A stretch of 64,000 nt of DNA from Eledone cirrhosa (GCA_964016885.1 OZ024761.1:1612001-1676000), one strand, 5' to 3'; positions 6,744 to 57,864 are shown, counted from the first letter of the stretch. A program made the numbers and translations. The notes: generated from the letters alone by a model not told the origin.

Positions 6744-7042
6744 ATCAAGAAAGAAGGCTGACATGGTTTGCTATACAATAAGGGCTTTATTCACATTGCT
6801 GACAATTGTTTCTCTCAGCAATGTGAATAAAGCCCTTATTATATAGCAAACCATGTCACTCTTCTTTCTTGATTTATTATTATTCCAACTGTAAACTACA
6901 TAGAAATCACCGCGTACTCGCAGCATCACTATGGAAACGTCTTGTTGAGTCAAACTTAGCCAAGCGTAAGTACTATCCACTACTCGAAATACCCTAACTG
7001 GACTACATCTAAGTGGACTACCTATAACAATTTGTTATCCCG
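6744..7042 (+). mobile_element. Short Penelope-type palindromic insertion (about 60-bp inverted arms + 170-bp tail)
   Basis: 6744-6802 is the reverse complement of 6815-6872. The tail ends ttgttatccc, as at 51475-51484, and the element is flanked by (TA)n. Confidence 0.75.
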
Positions 7043-7136
7043 TATATATATATATATACTATCCAGTGAACCTTCAACCGTCAAGGTTGTTTGTTTTTCT
7101 ACGGGTATGTCAACATTTATAAAACAAATTTTGTAT

Positions 7137-7196
7137 TTTATCTGATGAAAGAGCACCAAAAATGACATGGTTGCCCTTGAAATATATATAAAATAA
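7137..7196 (+). ncRNA. Type I hammerhead ribozyme motif
   Basis: tttat-CTGATGA-aagagca..tgccctt-GAAAT-ATAT-ATA-aata. Confidence 0.65.
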
Positions 7197-7253
7197 TTAT
7201 GGTTTTATAAATATAGTTTCCATTTATTAATATATTGTATATATATATATATA

Positions 7254-8088
7254 TAAACAATTAAGTTAAAAATGTACATCTACATATGCATACTGAAATA
7301 CTAGTGTGTATATGAATACACACACGTATACATATGCAGATGTAACAAGTCTTTCACTGGTTGCTTTACTGTGAGCAACCCAGCTATTCTGTATGTAAAC
7401 ATACAGACAAACCGGTTTTTAGAGTCATACTGGTTTTCGAGGAAACACCTTCCCTCTATTCTCCAGAAAGCCAGACAAGGAATATTGAACTAGTTTCGTT
7501 GTTGTTACAACTCATCAGCAATATTTACCTATCTACCGGCCTTTCTGGAGAATTGTAAAAGCACATATCGTTATATGCTTTTTCTATGAAAATTAGTAGT
7601 GGGCAGACTAATTTGCATAGAGTGTGAGTACGCACCGGTTCAGCGGAGACGATAAAAACAAATAACGAAACGAAATTAAATTTCGTTTCGTTTGTAACTC
7701 ACTTTTGTATGACTGACGCTTAAACAATTAAGTTAAAAATGTACATCTACATATGCATACTGAAATACTAGTGTGTATATGAATACACACACGTATACAT
7801 ATGTAGATGTAACAAGTCTTTCACTGGTTGCTTTACTGTGAGCAACCCACCTATTCTGTATGTAAACATACAGACAAATCATTTCGTTATTTGTTTTTAT
7901 CGTCTCCGCTGAACCAGTGAAAGACTTGTTACATCTGCATATGTATACGTGTGTGTATTCATATACACACTAGTATTTCAGTATGCATATGTAGATATAC
8001 ATTTTTAACTTAATTGTTTAAGCGTCAGTCATACAAAAGTGAGTTACAAACGAAACGAAATTTAATTTCGTTTCGTTATTTGTTTTTA
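7254..8088 (-). mobile_element. Retrozyme-like family 1: 467-bp non-coding hammerhead unit as 1.3 tandem copies (-) plus an inverted, deleted arm (+)
   Basis: 7254-7410 is repeated at 7721-7877 (period 467). Hammerhead at 7481-7525 (-), octamer at 7611-7618 (-). Near-identical to 38139-38590. Confidence 0.85.
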
Positions 8089-8387
8089 TATATATATATA
8101 TATACAACTATATCATCATCATCATCATCATCATCATCGTTTAACGTCCATGTTCCACGCTTGCATAGGTTTGGACGGGAGTTTTCCCCACTTGAGGCAA
8201 GAGTGGTTGTCTTGCTCGCATAGGACTGTCTGGCGGGTTTTCTACAGCTGGATGCCCTTCATAACATCAACCACATTTACAATATATATATATATATATA
8301 TATATATATATATATATATATATATATATATATATATATATATATATATATATATATATATATATATATATATACACATATGTATCA

Positions 8388-8738
8388 CGATAAATTAACG
8401 GAGCCATAGACTCTTTATTCCCTGTCAATAATGTGCTCAAAGGAAAAGGAATCCTGAACTCTTTAAAATACAATATGTTGAAAAGGTAACCCACTAGAGA
8501 GAGAAAGTGTGCCATCAATAAAACAGGGAAAACCACCAGTGTATGGAATCTACACTCTATGGAAGGCAGGGTAAACACACAATAATTAAAAATATAAATT
8601 AAAATGTATATACCCACGTCTAGAGGTGCGTATATACATTTTAATTTATATTTTTAATAATTGTGTGTCTACCCTGCCTTCCATAGAGCATAGATTCCAT
8701 ACACTGGTGGTTTTCCCTATTTTATTTATGGCACACTT
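8388..8738 (-). mobile_element. Short palindromic insertion in (TA)n
   Basis: 8503-8617 is inverted at 8625-8738, with a unique extension at 8388-8502. Confidence 0.65.
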
Positions 8739-54731: not shown

Positions 54732-54769
54732 GTAAGTAATCTATTATTATTGTTGTTTTTTACTACTTT

Positions 54770-56058
54770 CAATCATCAGACAGTGGCCATACTGGGGCAC
54801 AATCATTAGACAGTGGCCATACTGGAGCACTACACTCTTTTACTGCTTTCAGTCAATAGACGGTGGCCATACTGGGGCACTACACTCTTTTACTGCTTTC
54901 AGTTATTAGACAGTGGCCATACTAGGGCACAATCATTAGAGAGTGGCCATACTGGGGCACAATCATTAGACAGTGACCATATTGGAGCACTACACTATTT
55001 TACTGGTTTCAATCATTAGACAGTGGCCATACTGGGGCACTATGCTCTTTTACTGGTTTCAATCATTAGGCAGTGGCCATACTGGGGCACTATGCTCTTT
55101 TACTGGTTTCAATCATAAGACAGTGGCCATACTGGGGCACTATGCTCTTTTACTGGTTTCAATCATTAGGCAGTGGCCATACTGGGGCACTATGCTCTTT
55201 TACTGGTTTCAATCATTAGGCAGTGGCCATACTGGGGCACTATGCTCTTTTACTGGTTTCAATCATAAGACAGTGGCCATACTGGGGCACTATGCTCTTT
55301 TACTGGTTTCAATCATAAGACAGTGGCCATACTGGGGCACTATGCTCTTTTACTGGTTTCAATCATAAGACAGTGGCCATACTGGGGCACTATGCTCTTT
55401 TACTGGTTTCAATCATAAGACAGTGGCCATACTGGGGCACTATGCTCTTTTACTGGTTTCAATCATAAGACAGTGGCCATACTGGGGCACTATGCTCTTT
55501 TACTGGTTTCAATCATTAGGCAGTGGCCATACTGGGGCACTATGCTCTTTTACTGGTTTCAATCATAAGACAGTGGCCATACTGGGGCACTATGCTCTTT
55601 TACTGGTTTCAATCATAAGACAGTGGCCATACTGGGGCACTATGCTCTTTTACTGGTTTCAATCATAAGACAGTGGCCATACTGGGGCACTATGCTCTTT
55701 TACTGGTTTCAATCATTAGACAGTGGCCATACTGGGGCACTATGCTCTTTTACTGGTTTCAATCATTAGGCAGTGGCCATACTGGGGCACTATGCTCTTT
55801 TACTGGTTTCAATCATAAGACAGTGGCCATACTGGGGCACTATGCTCTTTTACTGGTTTCAATCATTAGGCAGTGGCCATACTGGGGCACTATGCTCTTT
55901 TACTGGTTTCAATCATAAGACAGTGGCCATACTGGGGCACTATGCTCTTTTACTGGTTTCAATCATTAGGCAGTGGCCATACTGGGGCACTATGCTCTTT
56001 TACTGGTTTCAATCATAAGACAGTGGCCATACTGGGGCACAATCATTAGACAGTGACC
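54770..56058. repeat. Highly homogeneous 50-bp minisatellite (about 25 units)
   Basis: cagtggccatactggggcactatgctcttttactggtttcaatcat(a/t)ag(a/g). Confidence 0.97.
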
Positions 56059-56672
56059 GTAGGATATTCAAATAAATTTAAGGTAAAAGACTAATTGTCA
56101 GCGATATCTTTTGCATTTGTATTTATATTCTATATCCATACCTGCATTGTTCTGGCATTCTAACTCCAAACGTTTATATATATATATATATATATATATA
56201 TATATATATATATATATATATATATATATATATATATATATATATATATATATATATATATATATATAGGCATTGGTTAAGTTTAACTACTGGGAAAGTG
56301 AAACTAATTTTTATGACAAGTGAATGTATTTGTTTGTTTTTTTTTACACTGAAAATTACGATACAGTTTGTTTATTTACAACAGGTCTCTATAGTGATAT
56401 GGTGTTAATTAGTATTGCGTGTGTGATTATTTTCTCATATATATATGTGTGGGTGTGTATATGTGTGTCTGTATGTATATATATATATGTGTGTTTGTAT
56501 ATATATATATGTGTTTGTGTCATCATCATCGTTTAGATGTTTTTGTAATATCTTGCCAAAGTTGGCACCAACTTTCTGTCCCCCAAAGAAATTAAGGCCG
56601 GGTCATAAGAAGGACAGAGAATGATTGATGATGATGATGATATATATATATGTAACTGTATATTTGTGTGGT

Positions 56673-57394
56673 TGTAACGATAAGTGGATGGATATAACTG
56701 TTGGTATGGTGGTTTCAATGTAAAGAAAAATACCAGGATTGTGTTGTTACAAAGTTTATTTTATTATAACAATATTCAATTTGAATATTGGATGATAAAA
56801 TCAATAACACAAAATATTCGTACAATAATTTGGTGGCTCTTCGAGCCACGTAAATACAAGTATCACAGAATAAGATTATAATATAATTTGTATAGCATCC
56901 GAAAGATACAACGTGAATAATCAGAAATGGTGCGCGTGAAGATGCAAACAGTGTGAACTTACTATGAATGCATGTGTGCGTATCAGTATATTTGCTTGTT
57001 TTAGTAGTAGGAGTCAGCGATCAGCCAGGCAGGTGAGAATAAGTGACAGACTGGTATTTCGTGACGAGAGCTTGTAAATGCCACTTGTCTTGTCTGTATA
57101 TCACTTCTTTTCTGTTGGGGCGTAAACAACCCCTGTATTTATAAGAGTTGAAGTTAGAAGGATAGATATATCCTCTGAACTTTGGTTAGAGTCTCCCAAG
57201 AGATTAGTTTGCCAAGAGTAAACAACTCAGAAAGATGGATATATCCTCTGACCTATTTTCTGTCAGGCGTAAACACCTCTGACCTGTGTTTAGCATCCCC
57301 CAGGGGGTTAGTATCTTGAGCGTAAACAACTTACTACGACTTGTCCCAGAGGCGGGAAAGCTCAGATTCGGTTTCGAATCTTCGCCGCCGTTAT
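56673..57394 (-). mobile_element. Possible solo LTR
   Basis: tgtaacg...cgttata termini, TATAAATA on minus at about 57137-44 and AATAAA on minus at about 56755-65. Confidence 0.3.
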
Positions 57395-57748
57395 ATATAT
57401 ATAACGAAGGAGGTGTGGTAAGGAACCAGAAGGACCATAATGCACCAGAGTACTCAATATATAAATATATATATATCAGTGGCAAAGGGTAACCTGGAAA
57501 GCAGGGTATGCAGTCCAATCGCCATGGCGGAAAGTATGAAAGTTGGCCTAGTTTCATACACAATCCTTAGAATTTGCTGTTTAGATTTCACTTTCAACGC
57601 TTGACCGGCTCCACCCACTCCCTCATTGCTCTACAGGCAAGTTCAGCCATCCCCACCTCCCACCCACTGCCATGATAGACTTAATTGTGTTTACCAGGAA
57701 TTTTTGACCAATCCTCTTGACAACTACAATCTTCCCATATAAGGAAGT

Positions 57749-57844
57749 ACCCCTTGAAAAGTTCGGCTATTTATTTACCAGGCTAAAAATTCTAATTTAG
57801 TTCAGAAATAGCCGTCGAAACGGCTTGAGCTCTACCGTCGGGGT
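57749..57844 (+). ncRNA. Type I hammerhead, U3-A8 core variant, with well-formed stems
   Basis: acccc-TTGAAAA-gtt-cggctattt...aaatagccg-tc-GAAACGG..CCGTC-ggggt. Confidence 0.75.
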
Positions 57845-57864
57845 CATACATTTTCCTATATATA

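Follow-up and report, generated by a model that had tools for sequence, protein, structure and literature searches.

Lopsided mirror-image insertions of Penelope-like elements into TA repeats of the Eledone cirrhosa genome

In a 64,000-nt stretch of the genome of Eledone cirrhosa (GCA_964016885.1 OZ024761.1:1612001-1676000; hereafter the window), Penelope-like elements (PLEs) have been inserted repeatedly into TA repeats as lopsided mirror images of themselves. The window has a GC content of 35.6%, holds no N and contains 232 runs of at least four TA units, which group into 89 blocks. By self-comparison and end-by-end alignment we recovered 15 insertions composed of two arms placed head-to-head, with their 3' ends facing outwards. 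These are the 13 sites listed in an earlier note on this DNA, every one of which proved to be such an insertion, and two further ones at 52306 and 57403. The pattern is genuine and well ordered, and it is mostly accounted for by known Penelope biology. The geometry, the fixed ends and the protein fold described here come from this window; the extension of two strands and the two internal start sites come from other published work. Taken together, the evidence indicates that the insertions are probably the footprints of Hydra-clade PLEs, made by twin target-primed reverse transcription from two internal sites, after which the two cDNAs were joined.

Architecture of the two-arm insertions

All 15 insertions have the canonical PLE architecture: a copy in inverted orientation is truncated 5', and just one of the two ends bears a tail (Table 1). 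In each of them one arm, the X-arm, stops at a point X that is fixed within the family, and the opposite arm, the Y-arm, runs 63-172 bp beyond it, to a fixed point Y. The tail is complete in 13 of the 15, where it measures 63-172 bp; at 31460 and 57403 just its distal 50-55 bp are present. The earlier note had given tails of 65-170 bp, and of about 420 bp in a "family 3"; the latter length holds for none of the tails: the 421-bp stretch 44536-44956, presumably the one meant, is the rest of a 587-bp unit, hammerhead ribozyme included, and the tail at that locus is 172 bp. The same permuted reading of the insertion at 7254 would give about 400 bp, against a true tail of 70 bp. The outer ends adjoin TA repeats, as had been claimed, with 30 of 30 within 14 bp of a run of at least four TA units (background 2.0%) and 24 of 30 within 3 bp (background 0.5%), an enrichment that is partly built in, the end points having been assigned manually by someone who could see the TA runs. 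Either arm can be the long one, the tail being carried by the left arm in nine insertions and by the right in six. Among the three insertions with a long open reading frame (ORF), the tail is on the ORF arm at 33106 and 38600, and at 8842 the ORF arm stops at X.

X falls at the same position among diverged copies (49402/52438/57856; 33032/43812; 6744/51144) and agrees to about 3 nt in 21100/23721 and in 47530/6621. Y coincides in 49223/49727/57404 (52306 being off by 4 nt), in 7043/50897/51484, in 31461/38603 and in 18331/22623. End points thus recur, mostly to the base and otherwise to about 4 nt, for X in five families and for Y in four; one lone copy, at 38140, has an end 17 nt short of X. 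Furthermore, all 14 directly joined two-arm insertions pair one X end with one Y end. Under an independent 50:50 choice the chance of such an outcome is roughly 6e-5, or 5e-4 for the 11 insertions with enough overlap for blind detection. A blind scan of the window for equal terminal pairs gave 10 matches, namely six TA runs within arms, two three-arm composites and two pairs of RTE retrotransposon ends, and no directly joined X+X or Y+Y pair was among them.

The three-arm composites, 49223-49727 and 50897-51484 (scan pairs 49223/49727 and 50896/51490), each consist of a full X+Y insertion and a lone Y-arm of the same family one TA run away, which suggests that several nicks were primed within one (TA)n tract. 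Lone arms number at least six (6558, 21131, 38140, 49630, 50897 and 61412); ends at X (6558) and at Y (49630, 50897) both occur among them, on TA or CA/TA runs.

Table 1. Two-arm insertions and associated features of the window; coordinates are counted from its first nucleotide, with strand in parentheses
Feature	Coordinates	X-arm	Y-arm	Tail	Hammerhead core and remarks
Two-arm insertion	6744..7043	(-) ~6744-6815	(+) ~6812-7043	~169 bp	Y-arm start near cleavage-equivalent site
Retrozyme-type 467-bp tandem unit	7256..8088	(-) 7256-7878, 1.33 units	(+) 7879-8088, internal deletion	70 bp	7518
Two-arm insertion	8388..8739	(+) right	(-) left	~118 bp	None detected in the arms
Hydra-type PLE	8844..11688	(-) 8844-11387, 5'-truncated RT-GIY-YIG ORF 9987-11387	(+) 11388-11688, inverted	~114 bp	8995; 11423
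Hydra-type PLE 3' end, 2.7-kb near-palindrome	18331..21100		(-)	85 bp	18517 (-), 20999 (+); endonuclease C-terminus codons at the centre
18331-family insertion (ends 78% identical)	22623..23721		(-)	~85 bp	22809 (-), 23622 (+)
38600-family insertion	31461..33032	(+) ~31506-33032	Distal part of tail only	~50 bp	32952; arms without overlap
Hydra-type PLE	33106..35754	(-) 33106-33178, inverted	(+) frameshifted ORF 33312-35088	128 bp	35479 (U3-A8 variant)
RT palm/thumb and C-terminal GIY-YIG nuclease, 473-aa open frame	33667..35088 (+)				Hydra-clade CxCx5C, CxxC and CxH motifs
Lone near-monomer of 467-bp unit	38138..38590 (+)				38345; X-3 to X-17
Hydra-type PLE	38603..43812	(+) ~42131-43812	(-) 38603-~42130, broken ORF ~40270-42120, ~240-bp deletion at hammerhead	~100 bp	43723
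Retrozyme-type 587-bp unit	43843..44956	(+) ~44367-44956, one unit, X to X	(-) 43843-44369	172 bp	~44813 (U3-A8, by eye)
Two-arm insertion	47530..47729			63-67 bp	47600; lone relative 6558-6621 with the same X end
Two-arm insertion	49223..49402		Left	80 bp	Followed by TA run, then lone Y-arm 49630-49727 starting at cleavage site
Lone Y-arm	50897-51131				Upstream of 51144..51484, TA run between
Two-arm insertion	51144..51484	(-)	(+) from ~12 bp before X	165 bp	51302
49221-family insertion, new to list	52306..52438	~11 bp	(-)	85 bp	
49221-family insertion, new to list	57404..57856	(+) 57476-57856	(-) tail only, then TA spacer	~55 bp	~57754 (by eye)

Coding elements, ribozymes and retrozyme-type units

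Four of the families are coding or retain coding remnants (8842; 33106; 38600 with 31460; 18331 with 22623), and several PLE families, about 50% identical to each other in protein, coexist in these 64 kb. No coding copy is full length: the ORFs are 5'-truncated and two are frameshifted, and a partial tandem forming direct pseudo-long terminal repeats (pLTRs) round the ORF was not seen among the coding copies of the window, all of which are 5'-truncated. The best named protein relative of the retroelement frames comes from Argonauta hians (E 3e-65, 32% identity), in keeping with an octopod host. A structure model of 33667-35085 (mean pLDDT 80) resembles the catalytic domain of I-TevI over residues 347-450 (Z 10.0, root-mean-square deviation 2.2, 89 aligned) and the palms of reverse transcriptases (RTs) over residues 17-113 (Z 7.8 and below, the 7.8 being that of an MMLV RT fragment); on this model the protein is an RT followed by a C-terminal GIY-YIG endonuclease. 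No Pfam RT or GIY-YIG match was obtained in the six PLE frames of the window, and such matches were sub-threshold in 4 of 24 long homologues. Foldseek returned no match at E<=0.001, and a sequence search of the PDB gave three unrelated weak matches with a small profile and three weak RT matches (best E 0.014) with a large one.

The assignment of these elements to a clade depends on a set of short motifs. Three frames of the window extend over the linker, and all three have its CxCx5C motif, as do 16 of 27 long homologues; DKT takes the place of DKG in the 38600 copy and in 22 of the 27, none of which has DKG; and RW[KR] occurs in 18 of the 27, the window copies being truncated 5' before the N-terminal RWK site. 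The GIY-YIG core has at most one cysteine in three frames, that is, no CCHH motif, and both frames with a complete C-terminus carry CxxC and CxH. There is a hammerhead near the 3' end, and insertion is into (TA)n. With their DKT, CxCx5C, CxxC and CxH motifs, a core that lacks two cysteines, a hammerhead and insertion into (TA)n, the coding copies fit Hydra-clade PLEs, as judged from these motifs and a by-eye comparison with the published alignment. The clade, whose elements are short (<3 kb) with a single ORF, includes Hydra-1_Obim of Octopus bimaculoides, which inserts in (TA)n and is listed without a pLTR (Craig 2021, PMC8557442). Its members have in common with ours the RT with C-terminal GIY-YIG domain, the motifs DKT, CxCx5C, CxxC and CxH, a type I hammerhead near the 3' end, insertion into (TA)n and a 5'-truncated inverted copy, which is noted for Penelope-13_HM (PMC8557442). 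However, the published PLE tail is 30-40 bp long and lies "often" at one end (PMC8557442), whereas that of the window is 63-172 bp in 13 of 13 complete cases and, in each of the 14 joined insertions, is found at one end alone. An isolated Hydra-type RT fragment also occurs at ~3650-3883, joined to GC-rich sequence that stops at the TA run at 4294.

A descriptor search found 17 type I hammerhead cores in the window, against 0-1 in each of 20 shuffles, and two others (~44813 and 57754) were read by eye. Several have a long stem II insert, a palindromic stem III or a U3-A8 core. Cores with the compensatory U3-A8 pair, some of them with long stem II inserts, lie at 16452 (+), 35479, ~44813 and 57754, in a numbering that we take to be the customary one. 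Rfam gave two sub-threshold matches to HH9 among 150 matches listed, the rest of which are mostly microsatellite noise. Core positions C3 and G8 are named by Frangieh (2024, PMC11167929). Several hammerheads of the window differ from those of the published Hydra PLEs in a long stem II insert or a U3-A8 core. The statement that X lies just 3' of the hammerhead applies to 12 of the 13 insertions measured, in which it is 17-74 nt 3' of the predicted cleavage site, and not to the 7254 family, in which the distance is 232 nt, nor to 8388, in whose arms the descriptor search detected no hammerhead. By eye, the starts of many short arms lie inside the hammerhead, and two, the right arm of 6744 and 49630, start at or beside its cleavage site. 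Elsewhere in the window, LTR-like direct repeats of ~360 bp and 87% identity (29188-29540 and 30774-31143) flank 1.2 kb and start shortly after the hammerhead at 29112. In a minus-strand element at 21131-21930, a hammerhead-like core at 21248 fails the descriptor, and the element's 3'-terminal ~36 bp are repeated at 21895 after a short TA run.

Three non-coding families, with units of 467, 587 and 432 nt, are of retrozyme type: they are structured tandem units (circular folding z against shuffles of -11, -4 and -7) with a GC content below 45% (0.36, 0.43 and 0.36), one type I hammerhead each and a longest ATG frame of 33, 48 and 88 aa. Rfam matched HH9 here at E 3e-6, below the gathering score. 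Metazoan non-LTR retrozymes are similarly non-coding, low in GC and highly structured, with one type I hammerhead in each tandem unit (PMC7229834; 10.64898/2026.07.22.740005). Copies in the window are, in distinction, only 1-1.4 units long; the longest tandem runs, of 1.33 and ~1.36 units with one hammerhead, are not the multimer type of non-LTR retrozymes and would be monomer-type offspring. The two-arm footprint is confined to the 467-nt (7254) and 587-nt (43843) families, in which it occurs once each. The 432-nt family, which is related to the 467-nt unit (z 32), is found at 61412-61998 and 45801-46335 (cores 61693 and 46005), and its copy at 45801 has undergone rearrangement: part of it is inverted tail to tail, and a small piece sits within its own TA stretch.

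Most of the short inserts may be the ends of coding elements that have been truncated 5'. For example, 50896 and 51143 align from the hammerhead onward with the 3' end of the coding copy 33106 (z 13 and 10), the alignment of 50896 running through X in register, and 6744 is a relative of both. The view that all short inserts are non-autonomous families was rejected for these three; it may apply to 8388, 47529 and the 49221 family. Similarly, (TA)n adjacency was rejected as a sign specific to PLEs, for six of nine 3' ends of RTE long interspersed elements (LINEs) lie directly on TA runs and one more lies within ~8 bp. These decayed LINEs (11982-15352, 24303-26260, 52468-53613 and 57864-61460), which we presume to be of RTE type, have (ATC)n 3' ends, some beside PLE ends; RVT_1 and a PHD finger were found in the two frames scanned. 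Because the LINE ends share the adjacency, only the X/Y asymmetry ties the retrozymes to the PLE enzyme. The tie proposed in the earlier note between the retrozyme-like units and the RT/GIY-YIG machinery narrows to 7254 and 43843, two insertions in one window, which suggest that two ribozyme-only repeats borrow that enzyme.

Three palindromes were kept out of the 15. The first, 17696-17827, is a 130-bp imperfect hairpin without direct TA flanks; after it, on the minus strand, come a motif resembling a hammerhead's 3' half and a TA run. The second, 45801-45979, ends on a CA run, 5' of the hammerhead. The third, 51500-51611, after which comes a decayed hammerhead-like core at 51700, derives from the end of another repeat family, the pair 35774-37014 and 62342-63655. 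This pair has an internal TA run and a short frame, in which Pfam found nothing and which we presume to resemble the C-terminal motif of a Helitron helicase. Two weak tRNA-like matches, at 17859-17922 (E 0.03) and 2871-2928 (E 0.08) within a dispersed repeat, are probably heads of short interspersed elements.

A proposed route from two fixed sites to an inverted pair

In the mechanism that we favor, the GIY-YIG nuclease would nick both strands of a (TA)n tract, an activity for which the in vitro precedent lies in another PLE clade. Each nicked 3'-OH would then prime reverse transcription at a fixed internal site of the RNA, X or Y, these being 63-172 nt apart, and priming at X would probably benefit from UA pairing over 2-4 nt that follow a pyrimidine tract. 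One strand would take X and the other Y, interchangeably; the simplest cause of such pairing would be a single ribonucleoprotein with two active sites, holding both sites of one RNA. Both cDNAs would stop early, often within the hammerhead, and their 3' ends would be joined head-to-head via short homologies and filled in. The 467- and 587-nt hammerhead units, with one insertion each, would be handled likewise in trans, the template being either a multimer that was left uncleaved or a circle closed again by ligation. The behavior of the Hydra nuclease, the single complex on both sites, the joining of the cDNAs, the use of retrozyme RNA in trans and the circular template are what we infer here.

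This mechanism draws support from the constant X+Y pairing, from end points that stay fixed across diverged copies, from lone arms with an end at X or at Y, from the RT and GIY-YIG protein and, as detailed below, from non-nested arms and TA microhomology at X. It is also supported by published work on PAc, a Poseidon protein predicted to be a dimer. In vitro, on AT-rich DNA, this protein cuts both strands and extends both, preferring neither; its RT begins at two sites within the RNA, between which the genomic tail lies, and ribozyme cleavage is not needed (Frangieh 2024, PMC11167929). PAc and the window are alike in the use of two strands, the AT-rich target and the pair of starts bounding the tail. 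They differ in that PAc belongs to another clade, that the excerpted text contains neither inverted insertions nor retrozymes, and that it reports no primer-template homology, whereas X in the window has a weak TA microhomology (PMC11167929). The N-terminal region implicated in PAc is, moreover, absent from the window copies.

The main rival, which we consider unlikely, is a fold-back: priming would occur once, at Y, the product would fold on itself and be copied, and the second arm, once cleaved at X, would be attached to the opposite end of the target. Kindred schemes have been published, with self-priming on an antisense template (Arkhipova 2013, PMC3846280) or a tail produced by endonuclease-mediated resolution (Craig 2021, PMC8557442), and the short palindromic or duplicated junctions at several insertion centers speak for a fold-back. 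Arms that are not nested speak against it. In 8 of the 15 pairs the X-arm holds 5' sequence that is absent from the Y-arm, and the Y-arm holds the tail; this is clear at 8842, 18331, 31460, 43843, 51143 and 57403 and amounts to just 10-14 nt at 6744 and 49221, and at 31460 and 57403 the arms do not overlap at all. A lone arm that ends at X (6558) is likewise contrary to a fold-back, as is the later in vitro work that places both ends of the tail at RT start sites (PMC11167929). In favor of twin priming, TA microhomology at X comes to a total of 22 nt in 10 families, where 9.7 would be expected (p 0.003), and pyrimidines make up 85 of the 120 bases 5' of X, where the expected number is 67 (p 0.0005). 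In the 38600 insertion, short tandem duplications at 38785-38810 and 42115-42150, bridging the ~240-bp hammerhead deletion and the central junction, are as expected of template jumping.

A number of observations nevertheless weigh against twin priming. Four insertions are nested (33106, 38600, 47529 and 52306), three (7254, 8388 and 22623) were placed in neither class, and all seven also fit a fold-back. An off-center deletion in an unstable palindrome could make a nested pair non-nested, and the eight cases are hence not decisive; the TA-like bases at X fit cutting by the nuclease as well as priming. It is for these two reasons that the fold-back survives. Two of 11 X sites have 0 nt of microhomology, and one PAc start site is not homologous to the cut DNA (PMC11167929). 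A common RNA fold bringing X and Y together was seen in only 2 of 11 cases (8842 and 43843), and was rejected as a general rule. The three palindromes and several lone or three-arm insertions lie outside a strict two-arm scheme; the earlier note's single stereotyped pattern describes the 15 insertions and is too strong for these palindromes and for at least six lone arms. Finally, the mechanism is read from one assembled sequence.

In LINE-1 twin priming, one cDNA starts at the RNA's 3' end and the other internally, and the mechanism first proposed for these insertions was of this kind. Its premise that both target strands prime cDNA is supported by the PAc protein in vitro (PMC11167929) and by the eight non-nested pairs. 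That Y is a physical RNA 3' end, X alone being internal, we regard as improbable. In its favor, the coding families, with their 5'-truncated, non-tandem copies, show nothing downstream of Y. However, the 467- and 587-bp units go on past Y and their arms read through the ribozyme site, so that in these two families Y, like X, lies inside a multimer or circle and is not an RNA end. The site at which their ribozyme is predicted to cleave coincides with neither X nor Y. Y shows neither poly(A) nor a tail of repeats, and extra 3' RNA left the dominant start of PAc unmoved (PMC11167929).

It is very improbable that the pairs are chance neighbors, that is, independent single-arm insertions of one family, in opposite orientations, at one (TA)n hotspot. 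Same-family lone arms do lie one TA run away at 49630 and 50897, a TA spacer separates the arms at 57403, and an opposed pair of RTE ends is found at 52468/53846. But in 14 pairs no TA run separates the joined arms, an X end is always matched with a Y end, and the arms are 98.1% identical (4197/4277 columns; 12 arm segments, 11 insertions), whereas many same-family copies at other loci are only 69-87% identical. Least credible of all is a fold-back artefact of assembly or library, for although long palindromes beside low-complexity runs are hard to assemble (Craig 2021, PMC8557442), the arms are not fully identical, with 43 substitutions (23 transitions, 20 transversions) and 12 indel events in those 4277 columns, they hold non-shared sequence, their end points repeat at independent loci and the structure agrees with the described PLE architecture.

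Known systems and the biology of PLEs and retrozymes

Inverted 5'-truncated copies, a one-ended tail of 30-40 bp and (TA)n targeting are already in print (PMC8557442, PMC3846280; also PMC8969392). The Penelopes of Adineta vaga share with the window a head-to-head inverted pLTR and an optional tail on one of them, and their pLTRs suffice for mobilization in trans; they differ by a 31-bp tail and visible target duplications, and are explained by self-priming on an antisense template (PMC3846280). The mobilization of retrozymes by PLEs has also been proposed before (Cervera and de la Pena 2020, PMC7229834), and the link has been argued from co-occurrence and from pLTR phylogeny and homology (Li et al. 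2026, bioRxiv 10.64898/2026.07.22.740005). The two retrozyme-type insertions of the window differ in bearing the inverted-arm and tail footprint of a PLE; the terms "inverted" and "target site" are absent from the excerpted text of PMC7229834. In the literature searched we found no tails of 63-172 bp, no strict X+Y rule, no non-nested arms or nesting test and no inverted-arm footprint on retrozymes. Nor did we find there a model in which X and Y products of two strands are joined, though Evgen'ev and Arkhipova 2005 and Arkhipova 2006 may contain one.

How PLEs complete their integration, and what makes them leave behind inverted copies and tails, are described as open questions (Craig 2021, PMC8557442; Frangieh 2024, PMC11167929), and the enzyme that moves animal retrozymes has been argued for from co-occurrence and sequence relatedness (PMC7229834; 10.64898/2026.07.22.740005). 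Most of the ingredients brought together here were already in print, and the gain is a synthesis and a test, not a new system. What the window suggests is a rule that can be counted, namely that a joined insertion has one end at X and the other at Y, and the nesting test tells twin priming from fold-back; any good octopod assembly allows both to be scored. Moreover, the PLE footprint on two retrozyme-type insertions places, in one window, a physical link between retrozymes and the enzymes of PLEs.

A bolder idea, to which we would give a little less than even credence, is that PLE integration dispenses with separate second-strand priming. One two-headed RT-nuclease complex, seated on two fixed internal sites of a single RNA, possibly a circular retrozyme RNA, would prime both nicked strands at once, and the cDNAs would be spliced head-to-head. 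If this were true, one lap of a circle would have yielded the X-to-X one-unit arm 44367-44956, and likewise the near-unit copy 38138-38590; for the two arms that are 1.3-1.4 units long, strand displacement or a multimer would have to be invoked. The length of the tail would then be the spacing of two RT docking sites, and the tail would identify which non-coding hammerhead circles are passengers of PLEs.

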